A DNA stretch of 64,000 nt from Escherichia phage vB_EcoM_P54: the sequence record PV390658.1; one strand, 5' to 3'. Within the stretch, counting starts at the first letter, position 1. The number at the start of each line of letters is the position of its first letter. Positions 1 to 10,658 of this stretch are shown piece after piece. Below the pieces are notes generated by a model. The model did not search any database, was not told where the DNA came from, and saw only the letters and a program-made list of their open reading frames with translations. Made by a program: the position numbers and the translations under genes.

Positions 1-20
1 GGAACTTAGAAGGTAGCGAA

Positions 21-485
21 ATGAAAATTAAAGAAGTCGTTCAAAAAGCAATGCTTGGCAACTCAACTAAACATGAAATGTACATAGAGATTTGTGATAA
101 GTTGAATTGTTCAAGACATGCTGCTAAGGTACTCGTGCATTGTTTTATCTGGGAATGCTCAGAAGCTTATATGCAACATGTAGCTTTTGAGAGTTCTCAC
201 TTACTAGGTGATGTAGAAGTTGGTGAGAAACTAAAAGAACCTGAGATGAAAACAGTCCCTAAAGTTGGTAATGTATACCCTCTTAAAGACTTCAAGACTG
301 GAAAGATTGTTGCAAAAGGTGTAGTAGAATCTGTTTACCATGATGGTAAATACTTACTTAAAATATTTGAGTATGATAGCAGATATACACACTTGTGTGG
401 TCTTACATTCTTAGTAACAGAAGAAGACCTCATTAAGAACAACAACAACAAGTTTGCAGTACCAGATTACCAAGTTTTACGATAA
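21..485 (+). CDS. hypothetical protein (154 aa)
   Basis: ATG at 21 preceded by GAAGGTAG SD-like sequence; open frame to TAA at 483-485. Confidence 0.55.
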   Translation: MKIKEVVQKAMLGNSTKHEMYIEICDKLNCSRHAAKVLVHCFIWECSEAYMQHVAFESSHLLGDVEVGEKLKEPEMKTVPKVGNVYPLKDFKTGKIVAKGVVESVYHDGKYLLKIFEYDSRYTHLCGLTFLVTEEDLIKNNNNKFAVPDYQVLR

Positions 486-498
486 TGGTGTGATAGAT

Positions 499-1047
499 AT
501 GGAAAAAGATAACTTAAAAGATGTTGAAGGTAACTATCTAGTCCTTGACTGGAATGATATTCGGGAAGGACTCTCCGAAGAAAATTTTGACTGGTTCCAA
601 CAAATTATCTTTGCAGTACGGCATAACAGAGAAGTTGAAAATGGTAAAGAGCCACTTGAAGGAATCTTTGTAGAAAGGTCTTATCCGTTCTATGAAGACA
701 CTTTGCAGAAAGTTAAGATGTACTTTAGACAGAAGAACCGTAAAGTAGTCACTATGGTATCTCTTGGTGGACAGAGTATGTCTGTGATGGAAGATATCAA
801 TCCTAAGAGACCGAGTAAAGGTATCTGTATAAAAATCACAGGGCATGAAGAGTATATTTCAGTGGATGACTTTAGTTCATTCTGTAATGGTTCTGCTGTC
901 TTTAATGGGTTTCACTATGATATCCGAGTGTACCCAATCAAGGGAGATGATATCATGATGCAGGTATTCGATAACAACAATGGGTTTACTCATTTTTATC
1001 AGACAACCAAGTCATCACTGAAGACAGTTCTGGAAACACTGGTTTAA
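499..1047 (+). CDS. hypothetical protein (about 182 aa)
   Basis: ORF-track frame 454..1047 begins with TTG; first in-frame ATG is at 499; followed by hairpin terminator. Confidence 0.5.
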   Translation: MEKDNLKDVEGNYLVLDWNDIREGLSEENFDWFQQIIFAVRHNREVENGKEPLEGIFVERSYPFYEDTLQKVKMYFRQKNRKVVTMVSLGGQSMSVMEDINPKRPSKGICIKITGHEEYISVDDFSSFCNGSAVFNGFHYDIRVYPIKGDDIMMQVFDNNNGFTHFYQTTKSSLKTVLETLV

Positions 1048-1056
1048 AATATCTTA

Positions 1057-1085
1057 AGAGCCTCCTTAATTGGGGGCTTTTTAAT
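1057..1085 (+). terminator. rho-independent terminator (plus strand)
   Basis: AGAGCCTCC-loop-GGGGGCT hairpin followed by TTTTT; the same motif recurs inverted at 37758-37781. Confidence 0.55.
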
Positions 1086-2630
1086 TTTTATAAAATTTCA
1101 TCGGTTGTCCCAACCTCTGGGTCACCATCATATGTGAATAAAATATCTATCCTTCTTAACAACCTTCTTAAGCTTACTCTCTATATATAGTTATATAGTA
1201 CTATATAGTATCTTAGTATCTATCTAGTGGTCTTAATAGCCCTCTGTATAAACCTTCTAAATAGCCTTCTAACAAGCCTTCTTAACAACCTATACAATCA
1301 CCTTAACCATCCCTCTATACCCTCTTAGAAGCTCCTATACACCTCTTAATCTCTAGGTTACCTATGTTACCCTCTATAGGTGTTCACTAGGTATTACTAA
1401 GCCTCTATATAGACTGTTTTAACAAACTTAACAGGAATATCTTTACAGACCTTATCTCACAAGGTCTAACACGGTATTAACAAGGTATCTTATAAGCCTG
1501 TTTATGCCTGTATTTTTAAAAGACTGTCTAGGTAATTATTCAGAATTTTAAAATTTTTATAAAATAGGACTATCAAGTCATTTTTAGGGTCTTTGAAGGA
1601 ACTCAAAAATATCTGTAGAAGATGTATATCTGCTTGGTAGCCCTTAACATCCCTGTAACATCCCCTTTGCAGAATTTTAAAATATCATTAACAATCTCTT
1701 AACAACTCTCTCAAGCTCTTAACATCTCTTCAGAGGTCTTAACAGATTCTTAACAGAACTAACAAGGCTGTAATAAGTTCTTAACAGTCGATACATGGTC
1801 TTTATAGTCTCTTAACAGATGACTAACAAGAGCTAACAAGTTAATTTTTAAGAGTTATTTTGTTAAGATAATTAACAAGTTCCTAACAAGTGTTTAACCT
1901 TTTTAACAAGCTATTAACATGGTCACTATCTCTTTTCTTATCGTTCCCTTTCTTTCTTAGTGATTCTCTAAATAGCCCTCTTAAAAGCCCTCTATAGCTC
2001 CTTGTAAGCTCTTTTAAGCCTCTTCCTAGTAATTACACCCCAACTATGCAGACACCTTTTTATAAGGCTTTACAGGAGCTTTAAAGGCTATGTCAAAGAC
2101 TCTTACAAGGCTTTTACGTGGTATTAACAGAGATTTAACAAGGGGCTAACAAGTTGCTAACAAGTGCCTTAAAAGCATAACTATGTAGGGTTTGTTAAGA
2201 AATTGTTAAGAAAATGTTAAGGGGGCTAGCATTTACGTAACTTTATAGCTTCTTTTACGTAACTTTGAAGTGACTTTATAGCCCCTATAACATACTTTTT
2301 AGTTACTATCAAGTGGCTTGTTTAGTAGTTCACAAGATAGCTAACGAGATAATAAAGCTTATAACCTTATAAGATTCTTTTAAGCCTCTATAAAGCCCTG
2401 TAAAGAGTTTTTTAAGGTGAGTTAATGCAATCCCTTAAGTTAGGTTGATAAGGCTGTTATAGAGCTTTATAGAGCGTTTAAACGGTTGCCCTTCCCTTTC
2501 GGGTTATGGGCTTATATTTAAGTTGATTTGATAAAAGGTTATAGAGTAAGCTATAGAGTTATTGCTTTTAAGGTCTAGTAAGATTCTGGAAAGGTGAGGG
2601 AAAGGGATTGTATAAGGATTCAATAGACGT
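1086..2630. repeat. ORF-free repeat-rich region: more than 20 copies of YTAACARG-like octamers (both orientations) plus CTCTATA and TTTATAGC repeats
   Basis: No ORF of 60 aa or more on either strand; octamers cluster at 1269-1289, 1689-1921 and 2123-2222 (three inverted copies TTGTTAAG at 2191-2222); bounded by terminators at about 1057 and 2631. Confidence 0.7.
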
Positions 2631-2655
2631 AAAAAAGCCCCTTTAAATAGGGGCT
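2631..2655 (-). terminator. rho-independent terminator (minus strand)
   Basis: A-run 2631-2636 then AGCCCCT-TTAAAT-AGGGGCT hairpin, i.e. hairpin plus U-run on the minus transcript; a second hairpin GGGGCT-ATTT-AGCCCC at 2669-2684. Confidence 0.6.
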
Positions 2656-2694
2656 GTAAAAGGTATCTGGGGCTATTTAGCCCCGTTGCGTCGA

Positions 2695-2943
2695 TTAGTT
2701 GTAACCTTGTTTATTGTAGTACAGTGAGATAATCAAGTCACCCCAGTAATGATAGTGATGCTCGTCGTTTAATGCCTCTTTTACAGCGTCTTTCCAGAAG
2801 TCATCAGTAGGGTTATAATCTGGGATAACTTGCTTGATAACTGTCTTCACTAATGAAAAACACTCATCAGTTCCACCAATATCAAATTTAACGTCCAGAG
2901 TATAACAGCCATAAGCATTGACAGTTGCGCGGATAGTTGCCAT
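2695..2943 (-). CDS. hypothetical early protein (82 aa)
   Basis: ATG at 2943 directly downstream of a type A cassette with AGGAG SD. Confidence 0.6.
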   Translation of the reverse strand: MATIRATVNAYGCYTLDVKFDIGGTDECFSLVKTVIKQVIPDYNPTDDFWKDAVKEALNDEHHYHYWGDLIISLYYNKQGYN

Positions 2944-3037
2944 TTTTGAATCTCCTAGTTTAAGGACTTTACTTAGTGGGGAAGGTCATTCCCTCCCCGT
3001 TGATTGACAATTTACAGATTTTTGATTGTCTCGTCAA
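2944..3037 (-). promoter_or_regulatory. type A cassette: sigma70-like promoter, 5-prime-UTR hairpin, SD
   Basis: Minus strand: TTGACG (3032-3037), 17-nt spacer, TAAATT (3009-3014), then GGGGAGGGAATGACCTTCCCC hairpin and TAAACTAGGAGATTCAAAA-ATG. Confidence 0.55.
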
Positions 3038-3542
3038 TATCTTTTTCAATATCTTTTAAAGTTTTTTCTAAGTTCTTGATATTGAACGTTAAACCTTCAC
3101 CGAGAGTCTTAGAGTAACCGCTAGGGCGTAAATCATGCAGCTTGATTTCTTCCACTTCAAAGAGACTCACCGCCTCACCATTTACATCGTAGGCCATTGA
3201 TACAGTATTTTCAGGTGCGTTGTAAAACTTGTTTAAGGACTTGATAGAACGTTCATAAGCCATTTTATAGCTATTTAAAAGGTTTTTAACGTGGCTGTGA
3301 ACGTTTTTACACTCATCTAAATAAAGACCTAAAAACATCGGGAGAAGTTCCGCGACAGCTTGCATAAAGTGAGAGACTACAACGGTTGCAACATTACGAC
3401 GATGAACGTAATAAGCCCCGTTTTCTGATTTGGTAATGGTTGCAAAGTGTACCCCATTACAACGAAATTCATAGGTATCTTTAACAGGCTTAGACATTAC
3501 ATTATTTGAACGAATATAGTTGATAGCTTTGAATTTGTTCAT
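3012..3542 (-). CDS. hypothetical early protein (about 177 aa)
   Basis: ORF-track start 3635 reads through the cassette (translates as KVLKLGDSKM); start moved to ATG at 3542 abutting the cassette SD. Confidence 0.55.
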   Translation of the reverse strand: MNKFKAINYIRSNNVMSKPVKDTYEFRCNGVHFATITKSENGAYYVHRRNVATVVVSHFMQAVAELLPMFLGLYLDECKNVHSHVKNLLNSYKMAYERSIKSLNKFYNAPENTVSMAYDVNGEAVSLFEVEEIKLHDLRPSGYSKTLGEGLTFNIKNLEKTLKDIEKDIDETIKNL

Positions 3543-3635
3543 TTTAGAATCTCCTAGTTTAAGGACTTTACTTAGTAGGGAGGTTATTGCCTCCCCGTTG
3601 ATGAGTAATTTACTTGTTTTGATATCTGATTGCAA
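3543..3635 (-). promoter_or_regulatory. type A cassette
   Basis: TTGCAA (3630-3635), 17-nt spacer, TAAATT (3607-3612), conserved hairpin and SD. Confidence 0.5.
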
Positions 3636-3764
3636 GCAATTTTTTAAGTCTATCTATAAAGAATCTTTTAAGTTAATCCCTTTTAGATAAACCCCCTCGA
3701 ACAAAGTTACCAATGTCAAGAGGGATTGTCAACATCTTTTTAAAAGTTTTTTGTAAGTTATTGA

Positions 3765-4106
3765 TTAACTGATGAATATTTTTTCAGGTTTTACATAGCT
3801 GATACGCTGTCTTTTTAGCAGGTCATCCCAGATTAACGCGGCGATATGGGAGTAACCGGATTCACGTAAAAGTTTCATTGTTTTACTTCTCGTTTCAAAA
3901 CGGCTTACATAGTGCTCACTATTCAGCGTCGTTTTATTCCCTTCGTTGTCTACATGGATAATCTGCATCACTTGAAAGGGGCTTACATCCTCACCTTTAT
4001 TCCACTGCTCAAAGTATTTTAGGCACTGCATAGGTGACATCTTATCGCTTACTTGAGTTGACCAAGATGCGCCAGCTTTATCGGTAATTACAGTTACATA
4101 AGCCAT
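3765..4106 (-). CDS. hypothetical early protein (113 aa)
   Basis: ATG at 4106 abutting a type A cassette. Confidence 0.6.
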   Translation of the reverse strand: MAYVTVITDKAGASWSTQVSDKMSPMQCLKYFEQWNKGEDVSPFQVMQIIHVDNEGNKTTLNSEHYVSRFETRSKTMKLLRESGYSHIAALIWDDLLKRQRISYVKPEKIFIS

Positions 4107-4200
4107 TTTAGAATCTCCTAGTTTAAGGACTTTATTTAGTGGGGAAGGTCATTCCCTCCCCGTTGATTGACAATTTACAGACTTTTATCAGGCTTGTCTA
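4107..4200 (-). promoter_or_regulatory. type A cassette
   Basis: TAGACA (4195-4200), 17-nt spacer, TAAATT (4172-4177), GGGGAGGG-AATGA-CCTTCCCC hairpin and SD. Confidence 0.5.
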
Positions 4201-4431
4201 GTCTTTTTCAATGATAATTTCATATTGACCATCGACACTGTCAAAATAGACGCCGTCTTCGTCTTCTGTCTTAAAGTAGCATTGAATATCATCACTGGCG
4301 GGATAGTCTTGTCTTGCTATCTGGCAAACTTGAATAGCATTTTCTTTACTCCCTGTAAACTCCTCAAGCCCTTTAAAATCACATGAATGACCATTACAAA
4401 TAGAAAGGATAAGATAAACGGTTGTAAGCAT
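4198..4431 (-). CDS. hypothetical early protein (77 aa), hydrophobic N-terminus
   Basis: ORF with ATG at 4431; N-terminal MLTTVYLILSICNG looks like a signal or anchor segment. Confidence 0.5.
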   Translation of the reverse strand: MLTTVYLILSICNGHSCDFKGLEEFTGSKENAIQVCQIARQDYPASDDIQCYFKTEDEDGVYFDSVDGQYEIIIEKD

Positions 4432-4494
4432 GATTTAAGCCCTTTAAATGGCCCTGTATGGGCCTTAAGTTGGAAGTTGGTGTCTTTGTACTGA

Positions 4495-5058
4495 TTAACC
4501 TAAAAAGTCTTTTAAATTGCGTTCTGTGATGTTTGCCGTGATTTTATCCAGCAAGTCACAAAACACGGAACTATCACCGCTATTCTGTACAATTTTCGCC
4601 ATACTTAACAAATCATCGTCAACATAGCCTAAATTGCGGTTAGTTGCATCTGGTACAAAGAAAGGTGCATACATCGCACTAAATTTCGTCGAGTGAAGGC
4701 CAATAATCCAACCTTTATCAAAGTGTCCGGTAAAGCTGGCGATATTGCTCATGTTGTCACAAGAATAATCATCCTCTAGCTCTTCCTCTGGGATATCCAT
4801 CTCAATGACAATTACGTCCTGCGTTTCCATTTGGAAAGCTGCCGTAATAAGCCCAGATTCTAAAGCGTTTTGAATGCAGCGTTCACGAATGTAAGAATCT
4901 TCCTCATCTTCCAGACATTCCGTTTTGATAATCTTGTTCATTGGGTAAACGTAGAAACAATCATCCATGTATGAGCAGTTCCAGATTCCTTCCGGCTTGT
5001 CGCCACCATTCAGCAGGTTTACAAAGTTTTTGAGGGTAGTTCCGTGATAGCATTTCAT
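4495..5058 (-). CDS. early protein (187 aa), candidate PARP/diphtheria-toxin-like ADP-ribosyltransferase
   Basis: N-terminus MKCYHGTTLKNFVNLLNGG matches the HG[ST]-x3-N-h-x2-hL NAD-binding motif of H-Y-E class transferases; Tyr cluster CFYVY and acidic stretch VIVIEMDIPEEE downstream; motif-level only. Confidence 0.3.
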   Translation of the reverse strand: MKCYHGTTLKNFVNLLNGGDKPEGIWNCSYMDDCFYVYPMNKIIKTECLEDEEDSYIRERCIQNALESGLITAAFQMETQDVIVIEMDIPEEELEDDYSCDNMSNIASFTGHFDKGWIIGLHSTKFSAMYAPFFVPDATNRNLGYVDDDLLSMAKIVQNSGDSSVFCDLLDKITANITERNLKDFLG

Positions 5059-5138
5059 TTTTGAATCTCCAGTTTAGGATTTAGTGGTAAAGCTCTTTAT
5101 CTGGGGCTTACTTTATCGAACTATAAGCCCCTTGTAAA
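5059..5138 (-). promoter_or_regulatory. type B cassette: promoter embedded in a palindrome
   Basis: Minus strand: TTTACA (5133-5138), 17-nt spacer that is the 5-prime arm GGGGCTTA, TAAAGT (5110-5115) in the loop, 3-prime arm TAAGCCCC, then AGATAAAGAGCTTTACC and SD. Confidence 0.5.
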
Positions 5139-5143
5139 GTACT

Positions 5144-5392
5144 TTATTTAACTTTTTTTGAGAAAATTAGTTTAACTGCAACTGTAGGAATCTCGTCAGC
5201 GGTTGTAACCAGCATTACTTTTTGAGTGACCAACTTATAACCGTTCTTTGCAGCGTATGCGGTAAAACGGTTGACATTGTAACTATAAGTTTTTGGTGTG
5301 TTGTCTGGCATGTGGTAAAGAAAAGGTTTACCCAAGTTTTCTTCTTGTGTCAATAGTCGGCAGGTATCAGGGACATTGAAATAGTTCATCAT
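5144..5392 (-). CDS. hypothetical early protein (82 aa)
   Basis: ATG at 5392 abutting a type B cassette. Confidence 0.6.
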   Translation of the reverse strand: MMNYFNVPDTCRLLTQEENLGKPFLYHMPDNTPKTYSYNVNRFTAYAAKNGYKLVTQKVMLVTTADEIPTVAVKLIFSKKVK

Positions 5393-5472
5393 TTTTTAAT
5401 CTCCTAGTTTAAGGACTGTGTAAAGCTCTTTATCTGGGGCTTAAGATACCAACTTTTTAAGCCCCTTGTAAA
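5393..5472 (-). promoter_or_regulatory. type B cassette
   Basis: TTTACA (5467-5472), GGGGCTTAA...TTAAGCCCC palindrome with TATCTT in the loop, SD. Confidence 0.45.
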
Positions 5473-5484
5473 GTACTTTATTAC

Positions 5485-5682
5485 TTAATTTTTGACAACT
5501 TTTAAAACTGCAAGATAACCTAAGCAATAAGAATCACCGAAGAGAGTTCTACCCATGAAAGAATCCTCTTTGATATCCTTTGCAGTGACAGTTTTTTCTA
5601 CGCCGTGGGAAAGGACTACATCACCAACTTTGATATCTTTGATGTGTGTTGTTTCAATGGTTAAGCCGTTAATAATAGCCAT
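5485..5682 (-). CDS. hypothetical early protein (65 aa)
   Basis: ATG at 5682 abutting a type A cassette. Confidence 0.55.
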   Translation of the reverse strand: MAIINGLTIETTHIKDIKVGDVVLSHGVEKTVTAKDIKEDSFMGRTLFGDSYCLGYLAVLKVVKN

Positions 5683-5776
5683 TTTAGAATCTCCTAGTTT
5701 AAGGACTTTACTTAGTGGGGAAGGTCATTCCCTCCCCGTTGATTAGTAATTTAATCTATCTAAAAATCAGTGTCAA
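5683..5776 (-). promoter_or_regulatory. type A cassette
   Basis: TTGACA (5771-5776), 17-nt spacer, TAAATT (5748-5753), hairpin and SD. Confidence 0.6.
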
Positions 5777-5783
5777 CATCTTT

Positions 5784-6188
5784 TTAAAGTTCTGCGTAGA
5801 TTGCATCACAGACATCACGGAAATCATGATTTGTTAAGTTACGTTGTAACCAAGTGGCAAAGAAATCAGCGATTGCAAAATTAGCGTCATACTCGACGGA
5901 TAGCCACACTTTAACAGCAAATCGGAACATCTTTAAATCCAGCTCTTTATTCATTACCTTTGATTTGCCTAACATGTCGGCCATCTCATGTTGTGCACCG
6001 TCTAGCGTGATACCGGCTGCAACGTCAGCCAATGAGTTTTTTACGCTTTCAACGTCTAAGATAACACTTTGAATCTTCCCAATAATGTTTTGCAGTGTTT
6101 CATCCGGTGCTGCTGATGTGATAACATTAATCCGGTTAACGGTCAAACGTGCTTTTAAGATAGATAACTCACGATTATTAATAGCCAT
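5784..6188 (-). CDS. hypothetical early protein (134 aa)
   Basis: ATG at 6188 abutting a type B cassette. Confidence 0.6.
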   Translation of the reverse strand: MAINNRELSILKARLTVNRINVITSAAPDETLQNIIGKIQSVILDVESVKNSLADVAAGITLDGAQHEMADMLGKSKVMNKELDLKMFRFAVKVWLSVEYDANFAIADFFATWLQRNLTNHDFRDVCDAIYAEL

Positions 6189-6268
6189 TTTTGAATCTCC
6201 AATTTAGGATTTAGTGGTAAAGCTCTTTATCTGGGGCTTACTGTACAGACTTATAAGCCCCTTGTAAA
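6189..6268 (-). promoter_or_regulatory. type B cassette
   Basis: TTTACA (6263-6268), 17-nt spacer, TACAGT in the loop of the GGGGCTTA/TAAGCCCC palindrome. Confidence 0.45.
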
Positions 6269-6273
6269 GTACT

Positions 6274-6546
6274 TTATGCTAAATGCAGCTTTTTGCCTTT
6301 TACTATGATGTAACTTGATGCGCTATTGCCGCATACATCTTGATAAATTCTACGCAAACGGCCTTCGTAGTATACTTTCCAGCTAGTTGGAATCTTTTTC
6401 CCGTATCCGGTAGCAGTTTTTTGGAATCCTGCAAGTTGCCAATCCAAAATGTGCTGTTCAGCTTGTAAATCCTCGAAGTGCATTACACCGTTCACATAGT
6501 GGCGTAGGGTTACGTTTAAGGTGCGACCGTTGTTAGTAGTGTACAT
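6274..6546 (-). CDS. hypothetical early protein (about 90 aa)
   Basis: ORF-track start 6588 is a read-through of cassette sequence (KVLKLGDSKM); ATG at 6546 with AGGAG SD. Confidence 0.5.
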   Translation of the reverse strand: MYTTNNGRTLNVTLRHYVNGVMHFEDLQAEQHILDWQLAGFQKTATGYGKKIPTSWKVYYEGRLRRIYQDVCGNSASSYIIVKGKKLHLA

Positions 6547-7536: not shown

Positions 7537-8049
7537 TTAGTTCTTAAAGATATTCATCACTGAATCTTTCAACGATTCCAAACGTTCTAATACTTCAGTT
7601 TCTGCGTCTGAATTGTTCACCTCTTCTTTTAGTCTATCCTCTAAATCATCGCCGTCACGATAGCACCAATCGAAAGCATAACCAAGATAAAAACTTTCTA
7701 AAACCGTGTTACCGTTTGCATCCACAACTTTCGCGGCAAGGTTGTACTCTGAAGCCTCTAAATCTCTTTCTAGTTCTTTTTGTAAGCTTGCGTAAGCCTC
7801 TTTTGATGGATTTTCCCGGCCTTGTTTTGCATAGTCACTTGAAAGCTGTTTAAGGCTGTAATGCAAAGGGATTGCATATTTAAAATCATTATGCTGACAG
7901 TTAGGATTTTTAACAGTCACACCGCCTTGATGGTCGTTTGTAAACTCCCAATTATCGAGATTATGGCTTGCTTCGTAGAAATTTACCGCTTCGTAGATGA
8001 TGGAAAATTTTTCTTTTACAACTTCAAAGGTAGCGTCTACAGTTTTCAT
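7537..8049 (-). CDS. hypothetical early protein (170 aa)
   Basis: ATG at 8049 abutting a type B cassette. Confidence 0.6.
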   Translation of the reverse strand: MKTVDATFEVVKEKFSIIYEAVNFYEASHNLDNWEFTNDHQGGVTVKNPNCQHNDFKYAIPLHYSLKQLSSDYAKQGRENPSKEAYASLQKELERDLEASEYNLAAKVVDANGNTVLESFYLGYAFDWCYRDGDDLEDRLKEEVNNSDAETEVLERLESLKDSVMNIFKN

Positions 8050-8131
8050 TTTTGAATCTCCTAGTTTAAGGATTGAGTGGTAAAGCTCTTTATCTGGGGC
8101 TTAAGATATCAGCTTTTAAGCCCCCTGTAAA
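8050..8131 (-). promoter_or_regulatory. type B cassette
   Basis: TTTACA (8126-8131), GGGGGCTTAAAAGCTGATATCTTAAGCCCC palindrome with TATCTT. Confidence 0.45.
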
Positions 8132-8139
8132 GTACTTTA

Positions 8140-8397
8140 TCAGATTAAATTGCCAGTTAATGATAAGTGCATTTTATAGCCTTTTTTGGTAAACACGTTT
8201 ACTTTACCGAGTGATTTTACACCTTTAAAAAGGTTGTTTGAATTACGTTTTAAGGTTAATTGTTTATCAGCCTTCACGCCCCATCTTACAGTGTATTGTT
8301 TTCCGTTGTCAACCACTTTTCCGCCTAACTTTTTCGCCATGATGCGAGCGTCATCACGAGTTTTTGCAGGAATTACAACGTTTTTGATAATAGCCAT
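8140..8397 (-). CDS. hypothetical basic protein (about 85 aa)
   Basis: ORF-track start 8412 is TTG inside the cassette; ATG at 8397 after SD. Confidence 0.5.
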   Translation of the reverse strand: MAIIKNVVIPAKTRDDARIMAKKLGGKVVDNGKQYTVRWGVKADKQLTLKRNSNNLFKGVKSLGKVNVFTKKGYKMHLSLTGNLI

Positions 8398-8867: not shown

Positions 8868-8950
8868 TTTTGAATCTCCTAGTTTAAGGGTTAATTTAGT
8901 AAAGCTCTTTATCTGGGGCTTAAGATATCAGCTTTTAAGCCCCCTGTAAA
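8868..8950 (-). promoter_or_regulatory. type B cassette
   Basis: TTTACA at 8945-8950; palindrome GGGGGCTTAA...TTAAGCCCC. Confidence 0.45.
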
Positions 8951-8957
8951 GTACTTT

Positions 8958-9164
8958 TTATATATCGTAATAGTAAACCGCTGTCTGTTTTATATGTCGC
9001 TTTGTATTCTTCGTAAGGTAGCAATTAGAATTGATTGCCGTTTCTACATAGTTGCAATAATCAGCTTCTGATATTCTACGCCATGCGCCGCACACTTGCA
9101 TGTAAAAACGTTTTACCTTTGTATTAACGTTGGTTGTAACCATCAATTCACGGCTGTAAATCAT
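8958..9164 (-). CDS. hypothetical early protein (68 aa), first gene of the leftward array
   Basis: ATG at 9164 after TAAACTGGAGATTTAAAA SD region. Confidence 0.5.
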   Translation of the reverse strand: MIYSRELMVTTNVNTKVKRFYMQVCGAWRRISEADYCNYVETAINSNCYLTKNTKRHIKQTAVYYYDI

Positions 9165-9213
9165 TTTTAAATCTCCAGTTTAGGAAGTAGGCTTGTTTGC
9201 CTGTCTGATGCAA

Positions 9214-9242
9214 ATACTAAATAACCATAGTCAGAGAGTCAA
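9214..9242 (-). promoter_or_regulatory. candidate sigma70-like promoter for the leftward early array
   Basis: Minus strand TTGACT (9237-9242), 17-nt spacer, TAGTAT (9214-9219). Confidence 0.4.
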
Positions 9243-9404
9243 TAGGAATTTTAAAAATATTTTTGCAAAAAACTGTAATGAAACGGGCGCACGCGACTAC
9301 CACAAAACAGAACTACAATCAAGAATTATTTTTCAATCCGCTACAAATTTTTCTGTTGACTTTTCTTTTCAGATGTGGTAGCCTTGTGAGAAATGGCGAC
9401 ATCC

Positions 9405-9600
9405 CCACCTGCACCCACCTACCTGCACAATTCTAAAATGATTTTTCTTGCCCGACCTGAGCGGGGTCTGCACGTTTTGAAAATGAAAAAGCTCTTTGGA
9501 GATTACCTGCACAGTTTGAAAATGAATTTTCTCTTTGGAGTTCAAAATTTTCTCTACAGATTTCTGTCCAGAACTCTACCTGCACAATCCTGAAATGAAA
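9405..9600. repeat. four degenerate direct repeats, core ACCTGCACA-N-TTYTRAAATGA
   Basis: Copies at about 9418-9440, 9466-9490, 9502-9527 and 9575-9600; CTCTTTGGAG also repeated at 9491 and 9531. Confidence 0.6.
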
Positions 9601-9671
9601 AAGCCCTCCTTACCTGAAAAATTTACCAGATAAGAAAGGCTTAGCCTATTGTGAATATTCTACAGAGTTTC

Positions 9672-10457
9672 TTAGTTCTTTGCGTCTAAGAAGGTTACTT
9701 CCGGTGAAGAGAAAATCTCCTCAACATCCTCATCAGTTCTTGCATAGATATATGTATCTGCATCGCTGCCAAATGTTACTGCAATTCTGTGATTGCTCTT
9801 CGACAGGTGGGTAACTAGAGCGTTACTTAGAGACATCTTTTCAACCGGAGGGTTACTTTGATGTATCTTGCCTTTTCTTCGTCTGAAGAGGGTAACTACA
9901 TCATTAGTGAACACTACTACACCAGCAAAGTATTCTGGTTCACAGTAGTTCTTCCAACCTGAGCGTAACTTGTGGTACATCTCTCCTTCATAGACATACA
10001 GATACACATCTACACTCTTCATCACCTGATTAATGATGACTGTGACGGCTTGAGAGTCTAGTCCACCGATACCTGCACCAATCATAGGTAACCCAACTTT
10101 CTTCAACTGATTGACTTCACAGTATCTGTTAAGCTGTTTCAAAGATGACTCTAAAGCACTGTATCGGGCATCTTTACCAGTCTTAAGCTGAGTGTAAAGG
10201 TTAGCTATACGGCCTTGTTCTAAACGTGCTACAGAGAAATTGCCTAGTAAATTTTCACAGGGTTTGTGACCTATACCACCTGCATACAGATAGACTTCTG
10301 TATCAGTCTCATATGCTTTTGGGTAAAGTTTAGAAATCTTGTCAGCGATACCTGCACCCATTAAATTCATACAGTTGCAACCGTGACCAATAATATCAAA
10401 CTTACCTTTATCAAATGCGGAGAAGATATCCCCATTGATGATTTTTACAATACCCAT
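9672..10457 (-). CDS. macrodomain-like protein (261 aa), putative ADP-ribose binding or hydrolase
   Basis: N-terminal VKIINGDIF...FDIIGHGCNCMNLMGAGIADKI and GLPMIGAGIGGLD resemble macrodomain motifs GDIT...DAIVNAAN...GGGV and ISTGIYG; extra C-terminal region of about 110 aa. Confidence 0.5.
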   Translation of the reverse strand: MGIVKIINGDIFSAFDKGKFDIIGHGCNCMNLMGAGIADKISKLYPKAYETDTEVYLYAGGIGHKPCENLLGNFSVARLEQGRIANLYTQLKTGKDARYSALESSLKQLNRYCEVNQLKKVGLPMIGAGIGGLDSQAVTVIINQVMKSVDVYLYVYEGEMYHKLRSGWKNYCEPEYFAGVVVFTNDVVTLFRRRKGKIHQSNPPVEKMSLSNALVTHLSKSNHRIAVTFGSDADTYIYARTDEDVEEIFSSPEVTFLDAKN

Positions 10458-10658
10458 TTAGCATCTCTCCCAAGATTCTTTATCTTCTGAAGGTTTTACA
10501 CGTTGTCCTTCGTGGTCTACCCAGATACATCCACAACCTTCACAGATTACTGGCATTGCATAGCCAGCTTTAAAGTCATCTTCAGTGATAAGACCTTTTA
10601 AGTCACCTGTATCACGTCCGAACATTTCGATAGCACAGTCTTTGCAGAAGTCAGCCAT
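10458..10658 (-). CDS. small Cys-rich protein (about 66 aa)
   Basis: CKDC ... CEGCGC motifs; start moved to ATG at 10658 with AAGAGG SD. Confidence 0.5.
   Translation of the reverse strand: MADFCKDCAIEMFGRDTGDLKGLITEDDFKAGYAMPVICEGCGCIWVDHEGQRVKPSEDKESWERC

Follow-up and report, generated by a model that had tools for sequence, protein, structure and literature searches.

A subfamily-wide array of four direct repeats at the inner edge of the early-gene module of Felix O1-type phages as a candidate origin-type element

What purpose is served by a half-kilobase gap that carries four spaced direct repeats and lies between the macrodomain gene and the early-gene array of a phage genome? We addressed this question in a stretch of 64,000 nucleotides from Escherichia phage vB_EcoM_P54 (PV390658.1), hereafter called the window, which belongs to a Felix O1-type myovirus of the genus Felixounavirus. 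Escherichia phage KEP2 is 98.9% identical to window 8900-10500, and 247 phage records match this region in total. Felix O1-type phages are widely used in Salmonella typing, biocontrol and therapy, and Whichard et al. stated that the mechanism behind the temporal regulation of transcription was not known to them (PMC3185647). Our literature search found no paper describing the array and no transcriptome study of phages of this type, and the repeat list of the Felix O1 genome paper was confined to exact repeats of at least 24 bp, an ORF being placed over the region there (PMC3185647); the array therefore appears to be undescribed. Comparison of related genomes shows a real, selectively maintained non-coding element that occurs throughout the subfamily and belongs to a familiar general kind; its most probable function is considered below together with the alternatives.

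All genes surrounding the repeats lie on the minus strand (Table 1), and the gap between the macrodomain gene and the first early gene extends from 9165 to 9671, which makes it 507 bp long and not 480 bp as given in the first-pass annotation. The strand logic of that annotation, which had viewed the repeats simply as a region upstream of the early array, also had to be mended: since the genes to either side are encoded by the minus strand, the macrodomain gene and its terminator have the array on their 3' side. Read from right to left, which is the direction of transcription, the gap contains the terminator, the four repeats, the variable segment, an A/T-rich block and the early promoter, and the array is situated ~180-390 bp from the first early promoter, on its upstream side. 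This position is the inner edge of the early-gene module, and the module forms the end of the linear genome. The terminator corresponds to t13 of Felix O1 (7947..7994; PMC3185647 Table 2, Whichard et al. 2010), and the six early-promoter cassettes of the window correspond to the 57-bp repeats of Felix O1 (Whichard 2010, PMC3185647). Each small early gene is preceded by one such cassette, whose -35 and -10 elements enclose a hairpin. The macrodomain protein itself has 261 aa, of which the Pfam Macro match covers only residues 25-141; its C-terminal ~110 residues are without a family match and are missing in the homologue from a divergent metagenomic relative (L063, described below).

Table 1. 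Coordinates of the repeats and of the elements that surround them in the window
Feature	Position	Strand	Description
Early-promoter cassettes (six)	5092, 5425, 6222, 8085, 8432, 8904	minus	TTTACA...GGGGCTTAA...TTAAGCCCCAGATAAAGAGC
First small gene of early array	8958..9164	minus	
First early promoter	9214..9242	minus	TTGACT-17-TAGTAT; drives gene 8958..9164
Conserved left block	9318..9385	plus	Ends in promoter-like site aimed into array
Variable segment	9362..9419		Directly left of R1; 58 bp; at least two alleles
Extra half-site	9407..9414	plus	ACCTGCAC; within variable segment; window allele only
Repeat R1	9420..9447	plus	TACCTGCACAATTCTAAAATGATTTTTC; 36.7 bits by weight matrix; kept in all relatives examined
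Repeat R2	9465..9492	plus	GGTCTGCACGTTTTGAAAATGAAAAAGC; 37.0 bits by weight matrix
R2 tail	9492-9501	plus	CTCTTTGGAG
Repeat R3	9504..9531	plus	TACCTGCACAGTTTGAAAATGAATTTTC; 38.0 bits by weight matrix
R3 tail	9531-9540	plus	CTCTTTGGAG
Degenerate duplicate of R3 tail	9546..9564	plus	AATTTTCTCTACAGATTTC; repeat search, 79% identity
Repeat R4	9577..9604	plus	TACCTGCACAATCCTGAAATGAAAAAGC; 39.3 bits by weight matrix
Intrinsic terminator hairpin of macrodomain-gene unit	9601..9642	minus	Terminator scan; strong
Macrodomain gene	9672..10457	minus	Pfam Macro, E = 2e-7

The four direct repeats noticed at first pass are all present on the plus strand. Their start-to-start distances are 45, 39 and 73 bp, all four copies fall within 185 bp, and they align without a gap over 28 nt, so that the difference in R4 is a substitution and not an indel. 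The short sequence that had been reported as repeated, CTCTTTGGAG, forms the tails of R2 and R3 and has no other exact occurrence in the window. The distance between R3 and R4 is of double length because a degenerate duplicate of the R3 tail lies there. R3 is the least constrained copy, being deleted in Si3-type phages and carrying point changes in L013 and L035, and R4, whose A-run is complementary to the terminator's T-tract, overlaps the tail TTTCATTTCA of the macrodomain-gene terminator. When a weight matrix derived from 47 distinct repeat copies of relatives was run over the 64-kb window, R1-R4 scored between 36.7 and 39.3 bits and the next best site 8.4 bits; the runner-up site in the complete 86-kb Felix O1 genome likewise scored 8.4 bits. 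A 19-mer pattern search allowing up to three mismatches returned 6 matches against 0.44 expected from shuffles, the top three being those of the array. Since four sites reach 36-40 bits and the next one only 8.4 bits, the array has the character of a unique cis-acting landmark and not of a regulon motif.

The core of each repeat is CTGCAC-N7-AAATGA, a conserved stretch of 19 nt. According to the information content per position, the blocks CTGCAC and AAATGA are invariant, with centres ~13 bp apart and with an A/T-rich spacer and tail; Erwinia phages and L063 have ATGCAC in place of CTGCAC. The tails are specific to a lineage yet repeated within it (CTCTTTGGAG in the enteric phages, TTGCCAGACC in the Erwinia phages and ATCGTTTC in L063), which suggests that whole ~37-bp units evolve in concert. 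The conserved determinant is a bipartite, asymmetric site of ~19-22 bp, of the kind usually bound by sequence-specific DNA-binding proteins that are dimeric or have two domains. Several known motifs were compared with the repeats and rejected. The DnaA box TTATNCACA (TT(A/T)TNCACA) shares just 5-6 of its 9 positions with the copies of the window (ACCTGCACA and GTCTGCACG), its positions 1-3 vary across lineages and its free N position is an invariant G, although the copies of the Erwinia phages match at 8 of 9 positions and those of L063 at 7-8 of 9. CTGCAC-N5 resembles the -24 element of a sigma-54 promoter, but the GG doublet and the -12 GC are missing; the boxA-like GCTCTTT of the tails is not kept in the Erwinia phages or in L063. 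Finally, a CRISPR array is rejected on the grounds that the repeats are ~50-75% alike over 39 nt and that the sequences between them are conserved between phages.

The array was found at the same position, past the macrodomain gene and the terminator, and in the same orientation in Felixounavirus, Suspvirus, Mooglevirus, Kolesnikvirus and L063. Four copies are present in 32 of the 38 distinct arrays that were compared and three in the other 6. The spacing 45/39/73 is common to 23 of the 38, the spacing 45/41/75 is that of Mooglevirus and phiSUSP1 (Suspvirus), and 39/37/37 is that of the Erwinia-infecting Kolesnikvirus, while L063 carries a fifth, degenerate copy beside its four scoring ones, repeated every 36-38 bp except for one long gap. 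Going by the spacings in the Erwinia phages and L063, the basic unit is ~37 bp. The first-pass annotation had named absent or scrambled repeats in close relatives as evidence that would speak against a function, and in these relatives repeat number and spacing are kept. Moreover, conservation of the array equals or exceeds that of the flanking genes: the identity of Felix O1 to the window is 0.97 in the array, 0.94 in the macrodomain gene and 0.86 in the first early gene, the corresponding values for Mordin are 0.73, 0.72 and 0.65, and those for phiEa21-4 are 0.68 in the array and 0.56 in the macrodomain gene. In blastn comparisons with Erwinia phages the array was the sole portion of the gap still detected. 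The adjoining variable segment, in contrast, is only 41-49% identical to Felix O1 and Mordin, with flanks at 73-97%, and this difference indicates that the array itself is under purifying selection.

L063 (IMGVR_UViG_3300045988_063805) is an unclassified metagenomic contig of 88,375 bp, in which region 1-6366 is the divergent relative, and it may represent an undescribed genus of the Felix O1 subfamily. Its motif copies (CCTATGCACGTTTTTAAAATGAATTTT) are the four scoring ones and the degenerate fifth, one of them with TCCAC instead of TGCAC. The macrodomain protein of L063 has only 148 aa (148 codons), and the next ORF upstream encodes 286 aa.

The surroundings of the array are made up of promoter-like and A/T-rich elements. 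The first early promoter has an A/T-rich upstream element (9243-9275, 23% GC), and its GTCAA is invariant in 9 of 9 aligned lineages. On the plus strand, the promoter-like site at the end of the conserved left block, which was read from the sequence and the alignment, consists of TTGACT (9357-9362), a 17-bp spacer and a TG-extended TAGCCT (9380-9385). Its -35 and the A/T-rich part upstream are invariant in the enteric-phage genera and its -10 falls within the variable segment; in the promoter scan of the window this TTGACT site stayed below threshold. Erwinia phages have a strong TTGACG-18-TATACT that is also directed toward the array. The variable segment carries one allele in the window and in phage Barry, C-rich on the strand where the others are G-rich; Felix O1, Si3, SUSP1/2 and Mordin have a homopurine G-rich allele with the G-quadruplex-type motif GGGGGGAGGGGGAGTAAGAGGGGGAGAGGGG (L004 1697-1754), and in Erwinia phages a G-rich tract is likewise found left of R1. 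Stretches rich in A/T (23-27% GC) are located at 9220-9279 and 9310-9369, 50-200 bp from R1, and the array itself has 32-43% GC against ~39% in the genome.

Does the array encode a protein? All six frames contain stops in phiEa21-4 and L063, and the spacings 45/39/73, 45/41/75 and 39/37/37 differ by non-multiples of three. The view of the first-pass annotation that the region is non-coding is thus borne out by stops in every frame in several lineages and by spacings incompatible with one frame, and so is its dismissal of the plus-strand ORFs as genes, which are not conserved across relatives. Felix O1 ORF14 was annotated at 8042-8254, over the repeats (supplement, PMC3185647), and has already been dropped by RefSeq. 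Given stops in all frames and spacings that break the frame, ORF14, Mordin_126 and the two window ORFs 9393..9593 and 9369..9545 are, on this comparison, annotation artefacts. About 19 of the 60 records listed for window 9165-9671 have a 'hypothetical protein' annotated under the match, for example NBEco004, SWJM-02, Ro111lw, SP116, Z31 and Mordin_126; such calls over the gap are probably spurious, the coordinates of a CDS over the repeats being taken from Mordin_126 and Felix O1 ORF14. Another annotation that differs between records is that of Felix O1 ORF42 (L041 22118-23533; ~470 aa), which adjoins the tRNA cluster in the part of the genome outside the window; RefSeq calls its product an RNA-binding protein, the UAB_Phi87 annotation a vWFA protein.

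Derivation of the array from a host or a plasmid was rejected, as no match was found in E. coli genomes or plasmids. A pattern scan of 185,579 bacterial and archaeal species (one genome each) returned merely unrelated tandem or coding repeats, and the scans of viral and metagenome sequences returned, outside the Felix O1-type group, only tail-fibre-type coding repeats or satellites.

The array was also considered, and rejected, as a packaging site or genome end, since the terminal repeat lies ~7 kb away at window ~1646-2226. A terminal repeat of 581 bp was defined in Pr103Blw by PhageTerm (PMC8303462; annotated in MW481326), and it is this repeat that maps to window ~1646-2226. Phage UAB_Phi87 has an experimentally demonstrated terminal repeat of 608 bp (PMC4837284); as the start of its GenBank record is not the physical end, that record gives no independent mapping of the terminal repeat. 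With a counterpart of the terminal repeat inside it, the window spans the junction of both physical genome ends, and, going by this terminal repeat, the early array fills the terminal ~7 kb. Window 1646-2226 is packed with TTAACA motifs on the plus strand (~1680-1920), often at 11-bp intervals, and has an inverted TGTTAA cluster at its inner edge (2192-2220). In L063 a similar TGTTAA cluster (600-760) directly adjoins the repeat array. Several metagenomic contigs end in or near the gap, at the polymorphic G-rich segment or at the repeated promoter cassettes, and we read these ends as assembly breaks and not as physical ends because of where they fall; the ends of four IMG/VR contigs from one sample within the variable segment are probably assembly breaks as well.

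What remains is a set of sites at a single locus. Our leading but tentative reading, to which we give a probability of roughly 0.35, is that the array is an iteron-like set of candidate protein-binding sites, most likely of the origin type. The suggestion of an iteron set in the first-pass annotation agrees with the anatomy, that is, direct, bipartite sites of ~22-28 bp in the same orientation at one locus per genome; where iterons are defined by at least three direct repeats of ~17-22 bp in one orientation at one locus, four copies are present here. From this anatomy we infer a bound protein, its identity as a single sequence-specific DNA-binding protein that would occupy all four sites, and a link to replication, with the array as a putative replication origin or replisome-loading site. 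The bound protein may cooperate with transcription running in from the promoters on either side, and the neighbouring A/T-rich and G-rich tracts could help to open the DNA for the T7-type primase-helicase and polymerase. Felix O1 encodes a primase-helicase and a polymerase of T7 type, has no RNA polymerase of its own and has no described origin (PMC3185647). In favour of an origin are the direct, same-strand and asymmetric copies, the two conserved blocks about one helical turn apart, the promoter-like sites on both strands and the G-rich tract that adjoins R1 in most lineages. The primary origin of T7 is also found at the boundary of the early region. Against an origin, different lineages have unrelated genes downstream of the array, the 37-45 bp spacings are not whole helical turns and are wider than those of classical iteron origins, and the array itself, at the GC content given above, is not A/T-rich. 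Moreover, an origin is usually expected near replication genes, and in the proteins encoded on either side we found no DNA-binding or Rep domain and no Pfam match except Macro. GC skew shows no sign change at the array and follows the direction of transcription. Early divergent transcription was placed at genes 96/97 by Whichard et al. (PMC3185647), which also speaks against an origin at the array.

That the array separates a strong terminator from the first early promoter raises the possibility, which we consider unlikely but worth weighing, of a transcriptional boundary or operator array, at which a bound phage or host protein would control the junction of the macrodomain unit and the early module. 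It could do so by reinforcing or relieving the terminator, by blocking the plus-strand promoter or by modulating the first early promoter. The overlap of R4 with the T-tract of the terminator, the TTGACT element conserved on the plus strand, which precedes R1 by ~60 bp and is aimed into the array, and the strong promoter of the Erwinia phages in the matching direction would suit such a role, although some lineages have only a weak plus-strand promoter or none. In Felix O1, the RT-PCR amplicon of ORF14, which runs across the repeats, peaked at 25 min and those of ORF13 and ORF16 at 5 min (PMC3185647), but this RT-PCR was not strand-specific and other ORFs of the early array peaked at 25 min too. 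The first-pass annotation had gone further and proposed an operator that switches the early array as a whole. Because the motif is absent from the other early promoters, six or more cassettes, as it is from the rest of the genome, an operator of the early array is disfavoured, and the array cannot be the general early/late switch; the distance of 180-390 bp between the sites and the nearest early promoter also counts against an operator.

An improbable alternative is an element acting as RNA, in which transcribed, unstructured, A/U-rich repeats might, for example, sequester an RNA-binding protein or a nuclease as a sponge or decoy does; the transcript would come either from the plus-strand TTGACT promoter or from minus-strand read-through. 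The region is transcribed in Felix O1 according to the same RT-PCR, promoter-like sites on the plus strand lie upstream, and the ~37-nt period of the Erwinia phages and L063 resembles that of type III antitoxin RNAs. These RNAs have a repeat period similar to ~37 nt. The RNAs that would be formed, however, give no structure signal: folding of the plus strand is no better than that of shuffles (z = -0.23), and the minus-strand value (z = -1.86) stems largely from the terminator hairpin. No relevant family came out of Rfam searches run at gathering score and, more permissively, at E <= 10 for the window and E <= 5 for three other lineages. In addition, the unit lengths are unequal (37-75 nt), the tails differ between lineages, and no promoter or plus-strand terminator is consistent across lineages. 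A repeat-type non-coding RNA was accordingly rejected, having unequal units and neither a stable fold nor an Rfam match.

Tandem weak sigma-70 promoters or RNA polymerase sites, with a -10-like (T/G)AAAAT in each repeat firing toward the macrodomain gene, are very unlikely. The scan of phiEa21-4 does give TTGCCA-17-TAAAAT and TTGCCA-17-GAAAAT, but each of these is composed of the tail of one repeat and the core of the next and depends on the lineage-specific tails; the window, Felix O1 and Mordin have no plus-strand site above the scan threshold, and the scan of the L063 array yields one weak site, TTTACA-16-CAAAAT (787-814). A -10 hexamer fits the repeat poorly, given that the equivalent of the -11 A is variable and the following GA invariant, and it would leave the invariant AAATGA and CTGCAC unexplained. 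A transcript from R4 would, moreover, begin inside the terminator hairpin.

Still less probable, in our judgement, is a T5-like checkpoint for DNA entry, or an anchoring site, on the inner side of the end that would enter first, possibly with DnaA-box-like half-sites, at which a host or phage factor would hold the DNA until early proteins are made; the early array does occupy the terminal ~7 kb with the repeats ~8-9% of the genome length from the end, the first-step transfer of T5 covers 7.9% of its genome and ends at conserved non-coding repeats with DnaA boxes, and the box is fairly well matched in the Erwinia phages and L063, but the window copies match it poorly, the array is not at a constant distance from the end (~5 kb in Felix O1), and we know of no two-step injection in the Felix O1-type group. 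That the array marks the boundary of a first-entering host-takeover end, with a two-step transfer of T5 type in a myovirus with short terminal repeats, is drawn from analogy with T5 and would be the most remote of the readings considered.

Whichever role applies, the array is the most conserved non-coding element at the junction of the early module. If it proves to be an origin or a boundary control site, it would offer a concrete handle for phage engineering and for finding the binding protein; if it is dispensable, it would mark a safe insertion site.

Four known systems can be set beside the array. In T7, the primary origin comprises the tandem promoters phi1.1A and phi1.1B and an A/T-rich region at the boundary of early and middle genes. 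The two are alike in their location at the edge of the early region, in short terminal repeats, in a gp4-type primase-helicase and in promoter-like elements with A/T-rich DNA; they differ in that T7 has promoters for its own RNA polymerase and no iteron array, whereas Felix O1-type phages encode no RNA polymerase (PMC3185647). The early-promoter cassettes of PAK_P1-like phages are 41-nt repeats (PMC4309531). Together with the 57-bp cassettes of Felix O1, these resemble the array as intergenic repeats in the early region of related phages. The cassettes, however, are full sigma-70 promoters with one ahead of each early gene, whereas the array has another motif, is on the opposite strand, forms one cluster and does not scan as promoters.

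The injection stop region of T5 is Repeat Region 3 with its DnaA boxes (Davison, bioRxiv 10.1101/866236). Like the array, it consists of conserved non-coding repeats at the inner boundary of a terminal early block, ~8% from the end, and both are conserved beyond many neighbouring ORFs. The T5 region, however, spans 1.2 kb in which direct repeats, inverted repeats and palindromes are nested and consensus DnaA boxes occur in pairs, whereas the array has four simple direct repeats with a poor DnaA-box match in the window; moreover, the former lies inside a 10-kb terminal repeat and the latter 5-7 kb outside a 0.6-kb terminal repeat. Iteron origins include the O-protein sites of the lambda ori and the RepA/RepE/pi iterons of P1, F, pSC101 and R6K, and iterons are three to seven direct sites of ~19-22 bp in one orientation, contiguous or spaced by ~22 bp. 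Compared with these, the array is more widely spaced (37-45 bp, with one gap of 73 bp), is not A/T-rich and has no adjacent gene for a Rep-type initiator; it is like them in being a single non-coding locus with A/T-rich DNA nearby and in having two conserved blocks about one helical turn apart.
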